In this document: in pieces, positions 7,047 through 28,794 of the stretch
Layout: each line of letters starts with the position of its first letter
How positions within the stretch are numbered: position 1 is the first letter of the stretch
From: a virus
Lineage: Duplodnaviria > Heunggongvirae > Uroviricota > Caudoviricetes
Length of the DNA: 36,223 nt
Reading direction: 5' to 3' (one strand)
IMG/VR virus record: IMGVR_UViG_2778261231_000006
Coordinates: 1 to 36,223 of that record
Program-made: the position numbers and the translations under genes
The notes under the pieces: generated by a model
Database searches by the model: none
Seen by the model: only the letters and a program-made list of their open reading frames with translations
What the model was told of the DNA's origin: nothing

Positions 7047-8237
7047 TTAATTGCTGTTAACCGAGGTGACCAGATTTGCCAGGTATTTATCGGTAATACG
7101 CTGGCGCAGGGTCAGGTTTTCAAGAGGAGGCACCGGTGTATAGTCGTAGTCGATATACAGTTTTCCTGCCTTGAGGGTTTCCGCATCGTTGGATTCTTCG
7201 CTGAACCAGCAGGTCGCATCCACGATATAGCCGTTTGTTTTCAGCTCACGGAATTTGGCATTAATGCCGTCAACGATGTCGCGAATCAGCGTTGCGGTGA
7301 TGGGCTTATCCACCGCCCACATGTGCGCCTCAGCCATCGTGTCGGCCAGCACCTGCGCAGTGCGGGTGTAGTTTTCAAAGAGGAACAGCGGGTCATCAGA
7401 GCAGGTACGGTTACCCCAGAAGCGGAAACCGTCGCGGCGAATCAGCGTTGTGACGCCTGACTCGTTAAGCAGGTCAGCATCGGTGCCGGACTCCTGCAAA
7501 TCCCAGAATACAGATGCGCTGATGCCGGTAACACCGTTTACCCCGACGTTGGACAGCGTTTTATGCCAGCCCTGCTCCTGGTCGATTTTAGCGCGCAGAC
7601 CCAGCGCACGGGCGGTGGCATACGCGGTGGCGGTGGTACTGGTGACCGTATCCCATGCGAGGAAATCCGGCCAGATGACCATCAGCTCACGCTGGCTGAA
7701 ATTCTGGCGGTAGGCTTTCACCTCGGAAATGGTCTTACAGCCCCATGCGCTGATATATCCGAAAGCGCGCAGCTTCTGACAGACTGATGCCAGTGCAACA
7801 GCCACCTCTTTGGTATCCAGCCCCGGCACACCAAGAATACGCGGTTTAACACCGGTTACCGACTCCGCCGCCAGCAGGGCTTTCAGTCCGGTGTACTGAC
7901 CGTTTTCGTCAGTGGTGCCGATAATATTGGAAACGGTCTGCGCGAGTTTCGTTTCCTCGTCATCACCGGTGCCGTCTTCCACGCGCACGACAACGGTGAC
8001 CGGTTTTGACTGGTCAGCGATGGCCTGCAACGATGCCGCCAGCGTGCCTTTTTTACCGGCCTTTGCAATTGCGCTCTGCACATTGGTAATCAACACCGGT
8101 TTATTGAGGGGGAAGGTTTCCGCATCTGCATCGCTGGCCGTGCAGACCATGCCGACAATGGCAGTGGATACGGTGGAAATGACGCGGGTGCCGTCGTTAA
8201 TCTCCAGCACCTGCACGCCGTGATGATAGTCACTCAT
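7047..8237 (-). CDS. FI: Contractile tail sheath protein gpFI
   Basis: 396 aa, MSDYHHGVQVLEINDGTRVISTVSTAIVGMVCTASDADAETFPLNKPVLI. Confidence 0.93.
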   Translation of the reverse strand: MSDYHHGVQVLEINDGTRVISTVSTAIVGMVCTASDADAETFPLNKPVLITNVQSAIAKAGKKGTLAASLQAIADQSKPVTVVVRVEDGTGDDEETKLAQTVSNIIGTTDENGQYTGLKALLAAESVTGVKPRILGVPGLDTKEVAVALASVCQKLRAFGYISAWGCKTISEVKAYRQNFSQRELMVIWPDFLAWDTVTSTTATAYATARALGLRAKIDQEQGWHKTLSNVGVNGVTGISASVFWDLQESGTDADLLNESGVTTLIRRDGFRFWGNRTCSDDPLFLFENYTRTAQVLADTMAEAHMWAVDKPITATLIRDIVDGINAKFRELKTNGYIVDATCWFSEESNDAETLKAGKLYIDYDYTPVPPLENLTLRQRITDKYLANLVTSVNSN

Positions 8238-8341
8238 CCGTTTAACTCCGTGGTTAATGGGTGCAACTATTTTCCGTTGGGCAGAGCATGAGACGCTATT
8301 TGACCTGTCTGGTCAGTGGATGAAACAACAGATACAGAAAA

Positions 8342-8360
8342 GGCGGGCAATTCGCCCGCC
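8342..8360 (-). terminator. GC-rich hairpin (GGCGGGC-loop-GCCCGCC) with weak U-tract upstream of FI; candidate terminator isolating the cargo island from the FI operon
   Basis: Perfect 7-bp stem; on the minus strand followed by TTTTCTGTATC; U-tract is weak. Confidence 0.35.
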
Positions 8361-8742
8361 TGTCCTAGTTTGTACTCACTCATTTTCCGACTGACAATTT
8401 ACATAGCCAAAACGCTATCAAATCTGACAGTCTGCTTTGAGCGAGGAGCGGAAGTTCGCAATTTTGATCACCGCACAAGGCGCATTACTAGTATTACTAT
8501 GTTTTGTTAAAAGGAAATTTTTCTATGCCTAAACACGAAAGTTACAATGGCATTTTTATTTCAAATAACGGTCAATTCTCCGGATTTCTTAAAGTTTCGG
8601 CTCCCCAGTGCCCCGGGGCGTCAGCCCAATTGCGCTAACCGGCAGAGGCGGCATTTCGGGCCTGGCGGCTTGGCCTTTGTAAGAAAAAAACGACCTAAAT
8701 CAAATTTTTGCAGTTAAATACTGCGCGAGTCAATAATTAATA

Positions 8743-8771
8743 TTGTTTTAGATAATTACTTTTAATATATT
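8743..8771 (+). promoter_or_regulatory. Candidate sigma70 promoter for the 604-aa cargo gene (-35 TTGTTT 8743..8748, 17-bp spacer, -10 TATATT 8766..8771)
   Basis: Hexamers and spacing read by eye; the AT-rich context makes chance matches likely. Confidence 0.25.
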
Positions 8772-8883
8772 ACGTGTTAATGTAATCTTCTGAATCTAAA
8801 CTATTCCATTTCCCATTTGATTTTCTCTGAAGTGCTGTCTAGTTGTTCTTGAATAATCAAATGTTAATTATAAGGACATCAAA

Positions 8884-10698
8884 GTGACTAAATATATTTT
8901 CAGTATCAATGATTTAATTTTATCAAAAAATGCACAATTTTTTAAGATAAAAAAACCTTTATCTAGAAATAAAATAAAAAATCTATTTAGAAGCATATCC
9001 TCGATAAAAGATGGTGTCTTTCTTATAAATAAAATTAAATCTGAAGTTGTTGTAGATAATGGGAATTTAACTTACTCTTTGGTGTCTTTTAAAGTTCTAG
9101 AAGAGCCTTCATTTCTACAAGGCACTAGCATTTCAGAAAGCAAGTATGCGTATCTAATGATCTTGGAGGTTCAGGATTTTTTAATAATTTCGAAGAAAAA
9201 TGTTGATGCAATTGAAAGCGAGTTGGAAAGGTTCATAGAATACTTTGAGTTTGATAAATTTTCAAATTTTAATGGAAGGCTGAATCCTGAGTATGAAAAA
9301 ATTAGCATGAGGAATATGTCACTGTCAGATTCAGTGATAAGAAATAGAACAGTGGAAGCAAAAAATCTAAGTGGCATTCTTTCTCCTAACACGACTGGAC
9401 GTTCAATTCCAGGGACATTTAGAGTCAAGACAGGAAATGACATATTTACTTTAACACCAAATACTTCACGAATAGGCTACAAAGATAAAAAAGTGGATTT
9501 TTTTAATTTCTGCTCATGGGCAATAGCTACAGTAAATGAATTATCTAACACAGCCTCTTTGTCAAGTAAGCTAATGGCAGGTTTCTCTTCCCCTATTACT
9601 TTGAGTGAATTATTAGCAAAAAAAGTCAAGCCAAAAGCTATTTTTATAGATCTTAGCGAGTTGGATGATATGGTGCGTGGCACGTCCCATACTTTTACAC
9701 TAACAAAAAATGTGCCTCATGGAACGGTGACGTTAAGTTCTGTTGAACTTGACAAATTTTTCAATGGATTTAAATCATCATATTTCTTAGATGGTGAAAC
9801 GCTAACCAATTTAAGATTCAAATTCAAATGTCGTCTGAGATTCAATACTAAGGTTGTGACTATAGTATCCAAATATCTCGATGGTATAATGATTAGTGAA
9901 AATGGTTCTCAGTTAATGTCGCTTAGTAAATATATTAACAAGTTTAAGCCATTCACTATAACCTTCGATTCCCCCCAATATTGCTATCATGGTCGTTCGT
10001 GTTTTGAAGATAAAACGATGTTAAATAATTTGAATATTTTCCTGTCCGTTTTTGATGATAGCTTTGATTTTTCAACAATCAGATCGGAAAAAGAGAAAGA
10101 TGACAAACAATCTTATCCAGAAAATATTAAAAGATTTCCAGTGAGATCGCTATTTAGACGAGTGGAGAATATCTATTCAAATAAAGATGCTATTGTAATT
10201 TGTGATGATATGAATGATGAGTGGGCCGATCATATTGTGCTGGATATCACGACAGGAAATCCATCCATAAAGTTTATTCATTCTAAATATATTAAAAAAG
10301 AGAGCTATGGCGCCAGTAAATTTCATGAAGTTATAAGTCAAGCTTTAAAAAATATTGGCAGATTACATTCACCAAAAGAACTTTACCTTGATAAATATGA
10401 TAATGAATGGTCTTCAAAATATTTACAAACGCAGATTAGTAGAATTAGACCAATTGACACTTCCAGGAATGACATTGAGTTAGCTCTTGACAAAATTAAT
10501 GAGAGTCCGAAAACTAGTAGGGAGTTAATATTAGCTGCTCCATTTTTAAGAAAAAAAATGTTAATCGATGAGGTGGAAATCATCAAGAGAAATCAGTCAG
10601 CCAAACCTTATACTGTTCAGCTAATCTGGCTTATAAATACATTTTTGAGTGCATGTGTTGAGTACGGAGTAAAACCCAGCATTCTATGTAAGAAGTGA
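8884..10698 (+). CDS. Hypothetical 604-aa cargo protein at the Z/fun moron site; soluble, function unknown
   Basis: Long uninterrupted ORF in AT-rich DNA, GTG start 7 nt after AAGGA, antisense to the flanking late genes; no Walker A seen by eye; acidic segment VICDDMNDEWADHIVLD...IHSK around residue 440. Confidence 0.8.
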   Translation: MTKYIFSINDLILSKNAQFFKIKKPLSRNKIKNLFRSISSIKDGVFLINKIKSEVVVDNGNLTYSLVSFKVLEEPSFLQGTSISESKYAYLMILEVQDFLIISKKNVDAIESELERFIEYFEFDKFSNFNGRLNPEYEKISMRNMSLSDSVIRNRTVEAKNLSGILSPNTTGRSIPGTFRVKTGNDIFTLTPNTSRIGYKDKKVDFFNFCSWAIATVNELSNTASLSSKLMAGFSSPITLSELLAKKVKPKAIFIDLSELDDMVRGTSHTFTLTKNVPHGTVTLSSVELDKFFNGFKSSYFLDGETLTNLRFKFKCRLRFNTKVVTIVSKYLDGIMISENGSQLMSLSKYINKFKPFTITFDSPQYCYHGRSCFEDKTMLNNLNIFLSVFDDSFDFSTIRSEKEKDDKQSYPENIKRFPVRSLFRRVENIYSNKDAIVICDDMNDEWADHIVLDITTGNPSIKFIHSKYIKKESYGASKFHEVISQALKNIGRLHSPKELYLDKYDNEWSSKYLQTQISRIRPIDTSRNDIELALDKINESPKTSRELILAAPFLRKKMLIDEVEIIKRNQSAKPYTVQLIWLINTFLSACVEYGVKPSILCKK

Positions 10699-10770
10699 AT
10701 TGAATTATCCAAGGCTGGCTGTTTATGTAGGCCAGCTTGCTTTCTTTAATATTTAGGAATTTGATTTAAA

Positions 10771-11353
10771 GTGAAATTAGGCCCATTTATTAACATTGCT
10801 AACTCTAACCAAATTCCTAAATCCCATCTTCCGCCTCACAATTCCTTAATTCAAACTAGACGTTTCCCGCGCAATACAAAGCAATCTCTTGATAACAATG
10901 GTATGGAACTGAACGTTGAGTGCCTAGTAGGTGAAGAAGATGGGGTATATGGCCTGATATTTGAGCCCTGAGGACTGGCGCATAGAAACAAAGATTATAA
11001 TATTGCCATCGATTATATCATTGGACGACTTATTGATTCCGGGGTAAACAAAGGCGTTGTGTATTTGGCCTCATCATCAACCGGAAGACATATACCATCT
11101 ATAGCGGAAAGAAAAATACATCCTGATGATGTAATTTTCTTTAGTGGGAAACTACCCTTCCGATATTTCCCAAAAAATGTGTATGTATCAGACTCATTTG
11201 AACAGTACTGCTAAAAAGGATGCACCATCAGGGAACAGAACTGAGCGAGTAATGATAAATGTTCCTAGTGTTAATAGTGCTGAATTTTGGAAACCTATCA
11301 TCTACGGAGATACATCAGTGCTTTTCGAGCCACTAATGATGAGAGTGTTCTAA
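10771..11353 (+). pseudogene. Disrupted ORF chain (in-frame TGA at 10969..10971, then apparent +1/-1 shift near the A6 run 11172..11177); likely pseudogene
   Basis: Frame of the 10771 ORF stays open past the TGA (…GLIFEP*GLAHRNKDYNIAIDYIIGRLIDSG…FPKNVYVSDSFEQYC) and a one-base change at the A6 run joins it to the 11144..11353 ORF. Confidence 0.4.
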
Positions 11354-11474
11354 GTAAAATGGTCAGTAAGCTAATATAAATTCCTTTGAACGAGTCCGAG
11401 GGACATAAAAAACTGGAACATTAGAAAGAGTTCAGAAGGTTTATATTCGGGATCCTGCTGTTAAATCTTGTGTA

Positions 11475-11711
11475 TTGCAAGGGAATAAGGGCGTTTGTGA
11501 AAGATGTAGTGAAAATACACCGTTCTTAATAAATGGCGATATCCCATATCTCGAAGTGTATCATGTGATACCTCTTTCTTTATCTGGTGCTGACACCATA
11601 AGCAATTGTGTTGCATTATGCCCGAATTGCCATCGGGCATTGCATTACAGTCAAAATTCGGAAGAGCTGATTGAGGAACTTTATATAAACATAAAAAGAT
11701 TGCAAAGATGA
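11475..11711 (+). CDS. HNH-nuclease motif ORF, probably a C-terminal fragment (open frame extends back to 11409 with no ATG/GTG)
   Basis: …RDPAVKSCVLQGNKGVCERCSENTPFLINGDIPYLEVYHVIPLSLSGADTISNCVALCPNCHRALH: CxxC…H…N…CxxCH…H pattern typical of HNH; TTG start only. Confidence 0.5.
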   Translation: MQGNKGVCERCSENTPFLINGDIPYLEVYHVIPLSLSGADTISNCVALCPNCHRALHYSQNSEELIEELYINIKRLQR

Positions 11712-11833
11712 GTGTTCCGTTTTGCTGGGATATTTATAGGTGAGCAACGTCCCCTCCTGGCACAGAGCGGACTCTCAGATTAGGCTTTACTCTGTGCCAT
11801 AGATATGTAAGCTCACACCAGAGCTCATACAAC

Positions 11834-12361
11834 TTATTGCGGCATTTCCGGCCATTCAGGATTTGCAGGATCCACACGACTGACCAGAACACTGTAGCGT
11901 TCCCATGCCTCCAGTCGACTGCGCTCCTCATCTGTTGCCATATTCAGCCTGACAGCGCGCTCCAGCGGCAAAATCACGGATTCAGCATCTGCAAGAAGTC
12001 TGGCTTTCCGATTTTCTGCCTGCTGCTGCAATTCCTCTGCCGTATAAATTCGTTTAATCACTGTACCGTCCTTAAACATCCAGTTCCCTGAAATGTCCGC
12101 CCGTCGGTTAGCAGTAATATCCGGCACTTCAACAACACTTAATCCATCCGGTCTGATAGCTGTCACATCCTTTTCCACATAGCGGATAATATTATCTTTG
12201 TCGTACGCTATTTTTATCGTGTCATCAGCAAAATACTTTTGTTCTTCGTACCAGTTCTTACCATCTTCTGAAAAAAACCAGACAACATCAAAGTCCTTTG
12301 TCAATTGATATTGTTCAACCGTTTTTGGATTACCTGCCATTATATTTATCAAATGCTGCAT
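11834..12361 (-). CDS. G: Tail fibre assembly chaperone gpG
   Basis: 175 aa, immediately downstream of [45 protein letters not shown]. Confidence 0.9.
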
Positions 12362-17189: not shown

Positions 17190-18263
17190 ATGAACACTTA
17201 CTTTTTCTCATCAAAAACAATGAAAGAATTGTTCAAAGATTATCTGGTCTTTTTGAACACGCTGACACCCAGCACAACCTTTGAATCAAACAGAAACAAA
17301 ATAATTGCTCAAGCAATAGACTTCATTTCTGAAAACCCAGAAGATTGGGACAAAAAATCCCAGTACAACATTGTCAGGATTGGTAATACCTTTACAAGCT
17401 TATTAAAAGAAAAGGGAGAGGATAACAACAGCATCAATTTTATATTCACTTGTTTTTTTAGATTTATTATTGAGCCAAGTATTCTCTCTCCTGAGACAGA
17501 TACTTTCTTTTCACCACTAAAAACCATCAAGGATTTCGCGCTGTATAACTATAATGAATTCGATGAACAAAGCAGAGCACAGATAGACTTTTCTCTTAGA
17601 GAACTACCATTAGCAATGGTTAAAGAAGTTTTAAGCTCAGGCAATGTGGACACATATAAAAAATATATTGATAGTTTAAGCGAAGGTCGTCAATTTTTCG
17701 AAAAATGCGAGTCCTTTTTAAAAGAACAACATACCAAAATAGAGTCAATTAAAGAATCATTGAAAGGGTATGAGGTCGCATTTAATTTTGTTGGATTGTT
17801 TGAAGGCTTTAATTCACTTGGCAAAAAGAAAGATCGTGAAATTTTACTATCAAGAATAATCCTTGTCATCTTAGCTATAATCATCCCATCCCCGCTGATA
17901 TACTATGGAGTGCATAAATTACCAACTCTCGAAACGACAAATGCTGCCACATATTTCATGTCAGCACTACCTTTTGCATCAGTCACATTGATTTTCATTT
18001 ATTACTTTAGAGTTGTACTGATAAATCACATATCGTTACGAACTCAGATTATGCAAATAGAACTCAGAAAGAGCCTTTGTCAGTTTATTCAGAGTTATAG
18101 CGACTATTCCTCAGAGATAAGGAAAAACAATCCGGAAGCGCTTTCAAAATTTGAAGATGTCGTATTTTCGAACATCATGCTATCCGATGATAAGATACCA
18201 TCTACATTTGATGGCATAGAGCAAATAGCATCGTTAATCAATTCATTAAAAAATGGCAAGTAA
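17190..18263 (+). CDS. Hypothetical 357-aa cargo protein with two predicted C-terminal transmembrane helices, at the S/V moron site
   Basis: AT-rich ORF antisense to the late operons; hydrophobic stretches ILLSRIILVILAIIIPSPLIYYGV and ATYFMSALPFASVTLIFIYYFRVVLI; own terminator downstream. Confidence 0.75.
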   Translation: MNTYFFSSKTMKELFKDYLVFLNTLTPSTTFESNRNKIIAQAIDFISENPEDWDKKSQYNIVRIGNTFTSLLKEKGEDNNSINFIFTCFFRFIIEPSILSPETDTFFSPLKTIKDFALYNYNEFDEQSRAQIDFSLRELPLAMVKEVLSSGNVDTYKKYIDSLSEGRQFFEKCESFLKEQHTKIESIKESLKGYEVAFNFVGLFEGFNSLGKKKDREILLSRIILVILAIIIPSPLIYYGVHKLPTLETTNAATYFMSALPFASVTLIFIYYFRVVLINHISLRTQIMQIELRKSLCQFIQSYSDYSSEIRKNNPEALSKFEDVVFSNIMLSDDKIPSTFDGIEQIASLINSLKNGK

Positions 18264-27897: not shown

Positions 27898-28794
27898 CTA
27901 TGATTTCGACACAACTATTTTCCCCAAATCAAAACTAAATTCGACATCCCCATTTACGATATTTTCATTTGTCACATGCTCATCAAAAAGGTCACTAACA
28001 TCATACCCCGACTGAAACACTGGGCTCATGATAGCCACGTCGGTGAATGGCTCTTTTTCATGTGTTATATAATATTGACCATAAACATTTGCAGATTCAT
28101 CTGCATCATTAAGACTAAGGACTGTTTTTGCTTTGACTTCAGGCATCAGAGAAAAATCAATATTATTCAACAAACACAGTAAGATGCCTGCTATTGTTCT
28201 CCTGTTATTATCAAGCGGCATCAAGTCCACCCCTGGAATCTCCTTCCGAAGCAATATTTTCAGCTCATTAAATAAAGAGTCGAACTTAATTGCGTCAGAA
28301 CAATTGAGTAACGACAAAGCTTCATTAATCATTCGCCCTTCATTGGAACCAATTTCTGATGTTAACTTACAAACACCATCATTAACAATATACGATTTTT
28401 TGTTATTAAGCTTCTTCCTCGCTGTAATTACCTGCCCCCCCTTTAAGTTTAACTTCTCCTTTAAAAACTCATCACTGAACATTCTTAATTGCAGTCTGAT
28501 TAATGTAGGTAAGTATTTCGGGTATTCATTTAACTCTGGTTTAACAGCATGCTTGTCGCGTCCAAATTTTAAACTTAATAACAAATGATTCCTCAGCATG
28601 ATATCCTTTATCTCGCCTTGATCTCTCCGATGATTATGGGCAACAAAACTCCCAATTTCAAAAATACACTTGGGCGCACTCGGCAACTCACGGGCCGTAA
28701 CAAAAAGAACATCAATATCACTATCAGTGAAACTCCCATCCTTTAATCTTCTCAACACTCTCTCTATTCTTGAGATTGCTTTACTTTTATTCAT
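27898..28794 (-). CDS. Hypothetical 298-aa cargo protein at the cos-proximal (tin/old) moron site; function unknown
   Basis: AT-rich ORF MNKSKAISRIERVLRRLKDGSFTDSDIDVLFVTARELPSAPKCIFEIGSF…; ATG with upstream AAGG/GAAAGAA; no TM helix or nucleotide-binding motif seen by eye. Confidence 0.75.
   Translation of the reverse strand: MNKSKAISRIERVLRRLKDGSFTDSDIDVLFVTARELPSAPKCIFEIGSFVAHNHRRDQGEIKDIMLRNHLLLSLKFGRDKHAVKPELNEYPKYLPTLIRLQLRMFSDEFLKEKLNLKGGQVITARKKLNNKKSYIVNDGVCKLTSEIGSNEGRMINEALSLLNCSDAIKFDSLFNELKILLRKEIPGVDLMPLDNNRRTIAGILLCLLNNIDFSLMPEVKAKTVLSLNDADESANVYGQYYITHEKEPFTDVAIMSPVFQSGYDVSDLFDEHVTNENIVNGDVEFSFDLGKIVVSKS

Follow-up and report, generated by a model that had tools for sequence, protein, structure and literature searches.

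The 36,223-nucleotide stretch of DNA analysed here (IMG/VR record IMGVR_UViG_2778261231_000006, hereafter the window) is a P2-like Escherichia coli prophage that carries, at positions 8884..10698 of the plus strand, a gene for a 604-residue protein belonging to the family catalogued in PADLOC as PDC-S71. On balance, we favour the view that this protein is a stand-alone DNA nuclease directed against phages and other mobile DNA, which works with neither a partner protein nor a nucleoside triphosphate. This view draws on the open reading frame (ORF) itself, its position in a prophage hotspot, its family membership, the purifying selection acting on it, a conserved motif and the predicted folds. 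According to the proposed mechanism, the basic N-terminal two-thirds of the protein, made up of an RdgC-like fold and a variable middle domain, would act as the sensor by binding DNA, or else a DNA structure that arises in infection, and the C-terminal third, a FokI/HamA-like PD-(D/E)xK domain, would cut DNA. Cutting would proceed through D449 and K468, H466 standing where an acidic residue is usual, and the metal site would probably be completed by D442, E446, E402/E428 and Q486. Since a PD-(D/E)xK domain has one active site and RdgC acts as a ring-shaped dimer, we propose that double-strand cutting probably comes about through dimerisation on DNA. The carrier prophage or island would thereby protect its host and exclude competitors.

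The gene and its family

The coding sequence runs from a GTG start codon to a TGA stop codon (10696-10698), with a Shine-Dalgarno-like AAGGA, as read from the sequence, at 8872..8876 (plus strand), 7 nt 5' of the start. It is the sole long ORF inside the 3.6-kb gap between the genes at 7047..8237 and 11834..12361, both on the minus strand. Its translation is free of stops, and RefSeq calls an identical coding sequence, WP_000170427.1, under the name 'hypothetical protein'. A preliminary description of this region, made from the letters alone, had read here a 604-residue ORF with neither a Walker A motif nor a transmembrane helix, and sequence scans agree on each count. The whole protein contains neither G-x4-GK[ST] nor any GK[ST], and its highest Kyte-Doolittle mean over 19 residues is 1.34, which lies under the threshold for transmembrane segments, and therefore no transmembrane helix is expected. 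The isoelectric point of the protein is 9.2, and the G+C (GC) content of the gene is 32%, compared with ~54% in the flanking prophage.

When all PADLOC models were considered, PDC-S71 (hidden Markov model (HMM) PDLC05077) was the sole match, with an E-value of 1.1e-218 and 725.8 bits, and the alignment extends over residues 7-604 of the protein and positions 3-589 of the 589 in the model. Going by this match, the gene is already catalogued through its membership of PDC-S71. The PDCs are 145 candidates, identified as genes that lie within BREX, DISARM and type I restriction-modification (RM) operons, among which PDC-S71 is a catalogue entry based on 'guilt-by-embedding', with no domains or mechanism assigned (Payne et al., 10.1101/2024.01.29.577857). 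A database search gave 162 homologues, all of them 'hypothetical' and mostly of ~588 residues, from Gammaproteobacteria, Bacteroidota and Campylobacterota, to which a genome scan adds Firmicutes, Acidobacteriota and Cloacimonadota. An exhaustive profile search retrieved 1003 cluster representatives with an E-value of 1e-3 or less, of which 373 reach 1e-30 or less. Of the best 150, nearly all are ~600 residues long and match from end to end, the rest including a few fragments and one protein with an N-terminal extension. In P0131 (1018 residues), a 430-residue N-terminal extension contains a Peptidase_S41 domain, which may reflect a true fusion or an error of gene calling. By pattern scan the family is present in 49 of 185,579 species representatives, and only 4 weak matches were seen among 72,556 plasmids. 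Relative to a copy in Erwinia (see below), the ratio of nonsynonymous to synonymous substitution rates (dN/dS) comes to 0.06 over the whole gene and 0.03 for the C-terminal third with the nuclease domain, and the gene is therefore under strong purifying selection.

Searches of Pfam, NCBIfam and PHROGs with the 604-residue protein gave no match, and Pfam searches with 10 and then 77 divergent relatives returned scattered noise only; a match to CTD9 in a single relative (E 0.049) was not reproduced and was set aside. Neither the single sequence nor the family profile matched a sequence in the PDB. Among the checks that the preliminary description had proposed, the Pfam profile search thus pointed to no family, and a Foldseek search against the PDB gave no match at E <= 0.001, whereas structure prediction yielded a nuclease-type core in the AlphaFold2 (AF2) model.

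A predicted nuclease domain around a conserved motif

Residues 423-604 (10150..10695, plus strand) are predicted from the AF2 model to form a PD-(D/E)xK, or restriction-endonuclease-like, domain, and matches to nuclease folds disappear when the search is limited to residues 1-420. In the model, an α-helix at 423-431, which includes E428, is followed by β-strands at 436-440, 450-454 and 461-467, a further α-helix at 473-489 and β-strands at 545-556 and 597-603. The α-β-β-β-α-β core fold of the PD-(D/E)xK superfamily is found in this predicted structure. The nuclease fold went undetected by sequence-profile methods and by Foldseek.

An acidic segment, AIVICDDMNDEWADHIVLDITTGNPSIKFIHSKY, had been singled out in the preliminary description as a possible degenerate nuclease motif of the type D...(E/H)xK, in a protein that was otherwise regarded as motif-poor. 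This segment (residues 436-469; 10189..10290, plus strand) is, on conservation and the model, the putative catalytic core and holds C440, D441, D442, E446, W447, D449 and H466-S-K468. It proved to be the conservation peak among 77 homologues reaching down to 22% identity, where the peak spans residues 441-500, and in the AF2 model it constitutes β1-β2-β3 of an α-β-β-β-α unit. The D...(E/H)xK pattern maps onto the predicted site, with D449 at the position of the 'PD' aspartate at the start of β2 and H466-S-K468 at the '(D/E)xK' position on β3. The term motif-poor was mistaken, as the family has a sharply conserved motif, C-D-D-[LM]-x-[DN]-E-W-A-D-[HYF]-I ... F-x-H-[SAC]-K ... S-A-S-x-[FL]-[HQ]-[DE]-[VI]-x-x-Q-A-x-K-N. 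E402, D442, E446, D449, K468, Q486, K489 and N490 are invariant in all 77 homologues (77/77). The last three lie on the next helix (10339-10353, plus strand), and E402 belongs to an S-E402-K403 motif, invariant in the family alignment, within the linker formed by residues 395-422 (10066..10149, plus strand).

N-terminal and middle domains

Residues 1-235 (8884..9588, plus strand) make up a basic, β-rich N-terminal domain, with a median net charge of +7 across the family, which we propose to be the DNA-binding or sensor part. Residues 236-394 (9589..10065, plus strand) correspond to a middle α/β domain, the least conserved part of the protein, with a mean pairwise identity of 21%. In the predicted structure, the N-terminal and middle domains match the RdgC / CENP-L / Iml3-type fold, and the best fold matches for residues 1-420 were RdgC and CENP-L.

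Location in the fun(Z) hotspot and movement of the cassette

The region is 100% identical to NZ_CP061764 (strain O19:H7 730V1), in which the prophage adjoins yegQ and bears ogrK. The annotation of that genome identifies the left border of the gap as the P2 tail sheath gene (FI; 7047..8237, minus strand) and the right border as the P2 tail fibre assembly gene (G; 11834..12361, minus strand), and GC falls from ~0.55 to 0.34 across the interval. The gap between FI and G is the fun(Z) locus of phage P2, which has been described as a second defence-enriched locus of P2-like prophages (Vassallo et al. 2022, PMC9519451) and is retrieved among the classical P2 hotspots in the iLund4u preprint. Both the position between FI and G and the variable content among prophages are those of hotspot cargo, and the suggestion in the preliminary description of an AT-rich gene at a defence hotspot is borne out. 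Of 5426 complete E. coli genomes, 1029 have the P2 backbone flanks and only 9 the whole AT-rich insert (8430..11772). In another P2-like prophage (NZ_OZ546922.1, locus L059, 2858-4237), the same Z/fun site is occupied by a gene for a 459-residue RES-family NAD+ phosphorylase and bears also a partial extra tail-fibre-assembly gene, which illustrates the turnover of cargo.

The insert is without P2 flanks in 7 of its 9 carrier genomes. In the one of these seven that was inspected, STEC309 (NZ_CP041435.1, locus L058, 3501-6834), a 3.3-kb module at 99.9% nucleotide identity, encoding the identical WP_000170427.1 and carrying the decayed HNH gene described below, belongs to an integrase-bearing island, not to a P2 prophage, and has dynamin-family, DUF6602, GTPase and Ag43 genes as neighbours; six further E. 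coli genomes have the same insert boundaries. As the identical protein is found both in an island and in a P2 prophage, the module has moved recently between island and prophage hotspot. A smaller segment, the 2.2-kb cassette at 8653..10875 (plus strand) consisting of the gene with ~230 bp upstream and ~180 bp downstream, is common to the window and Erwinia sp. S63 at 87% nucleotide identity. The Erwinia copy sits between an AsnC regulator and an autotransporter, which are unrelated housekeeping genes, and what is transferred is, at its smallest, this one gene together with its own flanks.

The insert also holds, at 10900..11711 (plus strand), a decayed gene for a type IV methyl-directed HNH restriction enzyme (PADLOC PDLC03656). 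Its pieces lie in three frames and match model positions 8-93, 103-151 and 178-277 of 277, the first piece having an internal stop, and RefSeq annotates in this interval only a 51-residue 'HNH endonuclease signature motif' ORF. Judged from these lesions the gene is a dead pseudogene, in contrast to the adjacent gene for the 604-residue protein with its purifying selection. It was rejected as a functional partner, being frameshifted and missing from the Erwinia cassette; the two travel together only in E. coli, and the HNH gene is therefore not a partner.

A 15-nt direct repeat, 14/15 identical, is located at positions 8648-8662 and 11839-11853 of the window. On the right, the repeat coincides with the 3' terminus of the tail fibre assembly gene (..PEMPQ*). 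The left copy encodes ..RPEMPP on the minus strand and looks like a relic of the end of another tail-fibre-assembly gene, left by recombination at the hotspot border. Other repeats in the insert region are chance matches of AT-rich sequence. A search of Rfam with 8200-11900 gave one sub-threshold match only (E 0.95). Promoter-like sites in the region, 11 against a shuffle mean of 13.3, are below expectation, and terminator-like sites, 4 against a shuffle mean of 2.4 (standard deviation 1.8), stay within about one standard deviation of it, so that neither signal rises above chance.

Genomic neighbours of the homologues

No conserved partner gene was found in the 43 homologue loci with flanks, where the biggest cluster of neighbours spans 4 loci and has no fixed position in them, and from this lack of a recurring neighbour it follows that the gene acts alone. 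The neighbours do, on inspection, include several defence systems. A Draconibacterium homologue has Gabija GajA/GajB neighbours in an integrase island, an Aureispira homologue is adjacent to an Eco47II RM system and an integrase, and three Aliarcobacter loci have complete, separate Hachiman HamAB pairs alongside. One homologue (locus L039) directly follows type I restriction endonuclease and specificity genes and another (locus L040) follows a type III restriction endonuclease gene. Further neighbours are an SspH-like protein, a type IV-A CRISPR DinG and a PDC-M37B/DolB-like protein, and the loci also contain integrases, insertion sequence (IS) elements and Tn3. The association of the family with defence systems is real but moderate, which agrees with the remark of Payne et al. 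that PDCs keep less to islands than other defence systems do (10.1101/2024.01.29.577857). Taken with the full-length match to PDC-S71 and the lack of a fixed neighbour, these neighbourhoods agree with the single-gene defence profile put forward in the preliminary description, the activity being predicted. Its two speculative points, a nuclease core and single-gene defence, are thus supported as far as computation reaches.

A helicase-fused sister family

A weak tblastn match on a Rhizobium plasmid led to a gene annotated as 'RNA helicase' and truncated by IS5 (locus L060, 4300-6513), with further loci L061-L064 and proteins P0385-P0504. The full-length relatives, of ~1020 residues, are from Alphaproteobacteria and have DEAD and ResIII domains and, in some, SWI2_SNF2 and Helicase_C domains. 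Alignment of the PDC-S71 family with this helicase family by hhalign gave a probability of 100% and an E-value of 2e-58 over 547 columns, residues 7-596 of the query being aligned with residues 429-1024 of P0385. On the evidence of this alignment the entire 604-residue protein is homologous to the C-terminal ~600 residues of a superfamily 2 (SF2) helicase fusion, which implies that the same module is used with a DNA motor elsewhere. The helicase-fused relatives keep the motif in the form C-D-D-L-x-x-E-x-x-D ... A-K ... S-A-S ... Q-x-x-K-N. They are solitary, and their neighbours include Cap4-nuclease, MazG/HMUDK, DUF2971 and DUF4011-helicase genes. Identification of these relatives with known helicase-nuclease fusions was rejected in two cases: the relatives gave no match to the PDB chain of Hna, and HmaA has as its nuclease a different domain, NOV_C (PF13020).

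A more tentative proposal, which we regard as possible, is that PDC-S71 is the motor-less form of an undescribed helicase-nuclease lineage, combining an RdgC-like DNA clamp with a His-variant FokI-like nuclease. The clamp, possibly ring-forming, would detect phage DNA ends or intermediates of replication or recombination and position the nuclease. No report of an RdgC-like fold as a defence sensor was found in the literature searched.

Counter-evidence and alternative explanations

A number of observations weigh against the proposal of a stand-alone anti-phage DNA nuclease. The acidic position of (D/E)xK is His in 71 of the 77 homologues (92%), whereas a few members have Ala, Leu, Ile or Val there and the helicase-fused relatives have Ala; with His or a hydrophobic residue at position 466, the catalytic arrangement is, going by the alignment, non-canonical, the second acid being replaced by His. 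The part of the missing second acid could be played by D442, E446 and E402, which are further invariant acids, and several PD-(D/E)xK enzymes take this acid from elsewhere or use His. No sequence feature accounts for the sparing of self DNA. The likeness to RdgC is structural only, since hhalign of each domain against an RdgC alignment finds nothing, a weak test given the narrowness of that alignment (all members >85% identical). Many homologues lie among housekeeping, regulator and transporter genes, and the family is found in 0 of 50,697 deposited phage genomes (INPHARED) and, by pattern scan, in none of the IMG/VR contigs, and the prophage location is therefore exceptional for the PDC-S71 family. 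Finally, the whole PDC set, PDC-S71 included, is stated by its authors to consist of untested candidates (10.1101/2024.01.29.577857), and a literature search for PDC-S71 or WP_000170427 turned up no paper.

The main rival explanation, to which we attach a modest chance, retains the same effector and differs in the trigger. The N-terminal and middle domains would in that case sense a phage protein, such as a capsid protein, a single-stranded DNA-binding protein (SSB) or a recombinase, and binding would free an auto-inhibited, non-specific nuclease, with degradation of host and phage DNA, or dormancy, as the outcome of such abortive infection (Abi). A single polypeptide with a variable N-terminal and middle part and a conserved effector is what one would expect of such a protein, and no methyltransferase or other self-marking partner is conserved in the 43 loci. 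Precedents are known in GAPS1, which is triggered by capsid (10.1101/2023.03.28.534373), and Hna, which is triggered by SSB (PMC13381803), and carriage in prophage hotspots is typical of Abi-type genes (PMC9519451). However, the N-terminal domain is basic and its fold matches the DNA-binding RdgC and CENP-L/N, no STAND, TPR or SAVED module was detected by Pfam in the query and 77 relatives, and no relation to GAPS1-13 is seen over their first ~125 residues.

It is rather unlikely that the protein is a type IV-like restriction enzyme, the N-terminal part of which would read a modified base or backbone and the C-terminal domain of which would cut nearby, the host being spared since its own DNA is without the mark. 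Such an enzyme would be a stand-alone nuclease without a methylase, as appears to be the case here, and the gene has a dead type IV HNH enzyme as its neighbour in E. coli and RM systems as neighbours in other genomes. Nevertheless, PDC-S71 was the sole PADLOC match in a search that included type IV models (mREase_IV), and residues 1-420, for which RdgC and CENP-L are the best matches, show no SRA, EVE, YTH or winged-helix reader fold. Matches to MspJI and AspBHI were also obtained; they are attributable to the nuclease domain alone.

We consider it still less probable that the gene is non-immune, serving as an accessory to recombination or repair, or being a selfish or toxic nuclease that hitch-hikes in variable loci. 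RdgC is a recombination-associated and nucleoid-associated protein, and both the solitary insertion of many homologues among housekeeping genes and the absence of the family from the phage and viral collections searched would be compatible with such a role. Against this stand the patchy distribution of a horizontally transferred gene (9/5426 E. coli genomes and 49/185,579 species representatives), its AT-rich composition foreign to the host and its repeated adjacency to bona fide defence systems and mobile-element integrases. Moreover, the PDC set was defined by embedding in BREX, DISARM or RM operons, and no antitoxin-like or immunity-like neighbour is conserved in the 43 loci.

Least credible of all is the suggestion that the C-terminal domain has kept the endonuclease fold and is no hydrolytic DNA nuclease, being given instead to DNA binding, RNA cutting or another substrate: H466 in place of D/E, the hydrophobic residue in a few members, the Ala in the helicase-fused relatives and the failure of known nuclease family profiles to match would allow it, but eight invariant polar residues around the site are a signature of catalysis and not of binding alone, and D442 and E446 are candidate stand-ins for the second acid.

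Comparison with known systems

The 604-residue protein belongs to PDC-S71, a single-gene family found near other defence systems, and HamA, Shedu, type IV restriction endonucleases, RdgC, Hna, HmaA and GAPS resemble it in their probable mode of working and not by membership. The cleavage domains of FokI and BspD6I have no sequence-level relation to it and in the 604-residue protein His replaces their second Asp; it is also without the specific DNA-recognition domain and the cognate methyltransferase of FokI-type enzymes. Assignment to HamA of Hachiman (DUF1837) was rejected, as Pfam gave no match in the query or 77 relatives and a comparison of the C-terminal domain with three HamA sequences by hhalign gave a probability of 0.4%, and the helicase partner HamB is not conserved beside PDC-S71 genes in the 43 loci. 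Shedu (SduA, DUF4263) was likewise rejected, with no PADLOC or Pfam match and with an N-terminal fold and a motif that differ from those of the 604-residue protein. The same holds for membership of the RdgC family (PF04381), to which there is no Pfam match and an identity of 7%; RdgC, unlike the 604-residue protein, is without a nuclease domain.

GAPS1 joins a sensor and a PD-(D/E)xK effector in one protein encoded on mobile islands (10.1101/2023.03.28.534373), as we propose for the 604-residue protein. GAPS1 is common in Klebsiella and has its catalytic residues at 313 and 328, whereas the PDC-S71 family is rare. Membership of GAPS1-13 was rejected, since the family HMM scored at best 4.8 bits against their N-terminal ~125 residues, a comparison made with the synthesised genes of Table S3 for GAPS2, 3, 4a, 5, 7, 8, 9, 12 and 13 and with a GAPS1 homologue; the N-termini of GAPS6, 10 and 11, compared by eye only, show no resemblance. 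GAPS2 is common in Providencia, the genus of the closest homologue cluster, and an identity of the family with GAPS2 in particular was discarded, as the gene sequences in Table S3 of the preprint (~125 N-terminal residues) fail to match the family HMM.

That a complete defence system can consist of one polypeptide joining a helicase to a PD-(D/E)xK nuclease is known from Hna (PMC13381803) and HmaA. Membership of this group calls for an SF2 helicase (Walker A/B) in the same polypeptide, and the 604-residue protein is without a helicase or ATPase part; HmaA was rejected as a relative, its NOV_C domain (PF13020) giving no match. Like fun(Z) of P2 and the other cargo of this hotspot, the gene is a moron of foreign base composition between FI and G, but its protein is unrelated to theirs. 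The domain assignment, the helicase-fused sister family and the exchange of a cassette between islands and Z/fun appear to be absent from the published record.

Other features of the prophage

At 8341-8361, just upstream of the tail sheath gene, a strong hairpin rich in GC, AGGCGGGCGAATTGCCCGCCT, precedes a T-run on the minus strand; located within the conserved P2 backbone, it is probably a terminator separating two late tail operons. A second AT-rich moron at 17190-18263 (plus strand; GC ~0.35, 357 residues) lies on the opposite strand between the baseplate gene V and the virion-morphogenesis and tail genes. Its match is to phrog_9373 (function unknown); PADLOC and Pfam gave none, and the only NCBIfam match is far sub-threshold (E 0.027). 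A third AT-rich ORF, at 27898-28794 (minus strand; GC ~0.36, 298 residues), matches phrog_29586 (function unknown) and gave no PADLOC, Pfam or NCBIfam match. We take it to lie in the old/tin hotspot between the gpQ portal and gpA replication genes, these flanks having been assigned by ORF size and P2 gene order. The old/tin locus is the best-known P2 defence hotspot and was reportedly studied by Rousset et al. 2022; the ORF would be an uncharacterised candidate there.

Implications

Should the proposed function be validated, an anonymous PADLOC candidate would gain the standing of a defined system, its active site (D449, K468, H466, D442 and E446) being open to testing, and a defence protein without an NTPase, methylase or partner gene would constitute a new variant among single-protein nuclease defences; if it is not, the gene would be one more hypothetical nuclease-like moron. 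If PDC-S71 is indeed the motor-less form of a helicase-nuclease lineage, both the defence family and its sensing principle would be new, and the family would be present in P2 prophage hotspots as well as chromosomal islands. The RdgC-like front end, together with the helicase-fused relatives, offers a natural experiment on what a motor contributes to a nuclease effector, a question that applies likewise to Hachiman, Hna and HmaA. With the identical protein found in two contexts, the less-studied Z/fun hotspot is seen to swap ready-made candidate defence cassettes with chromosomal islands.

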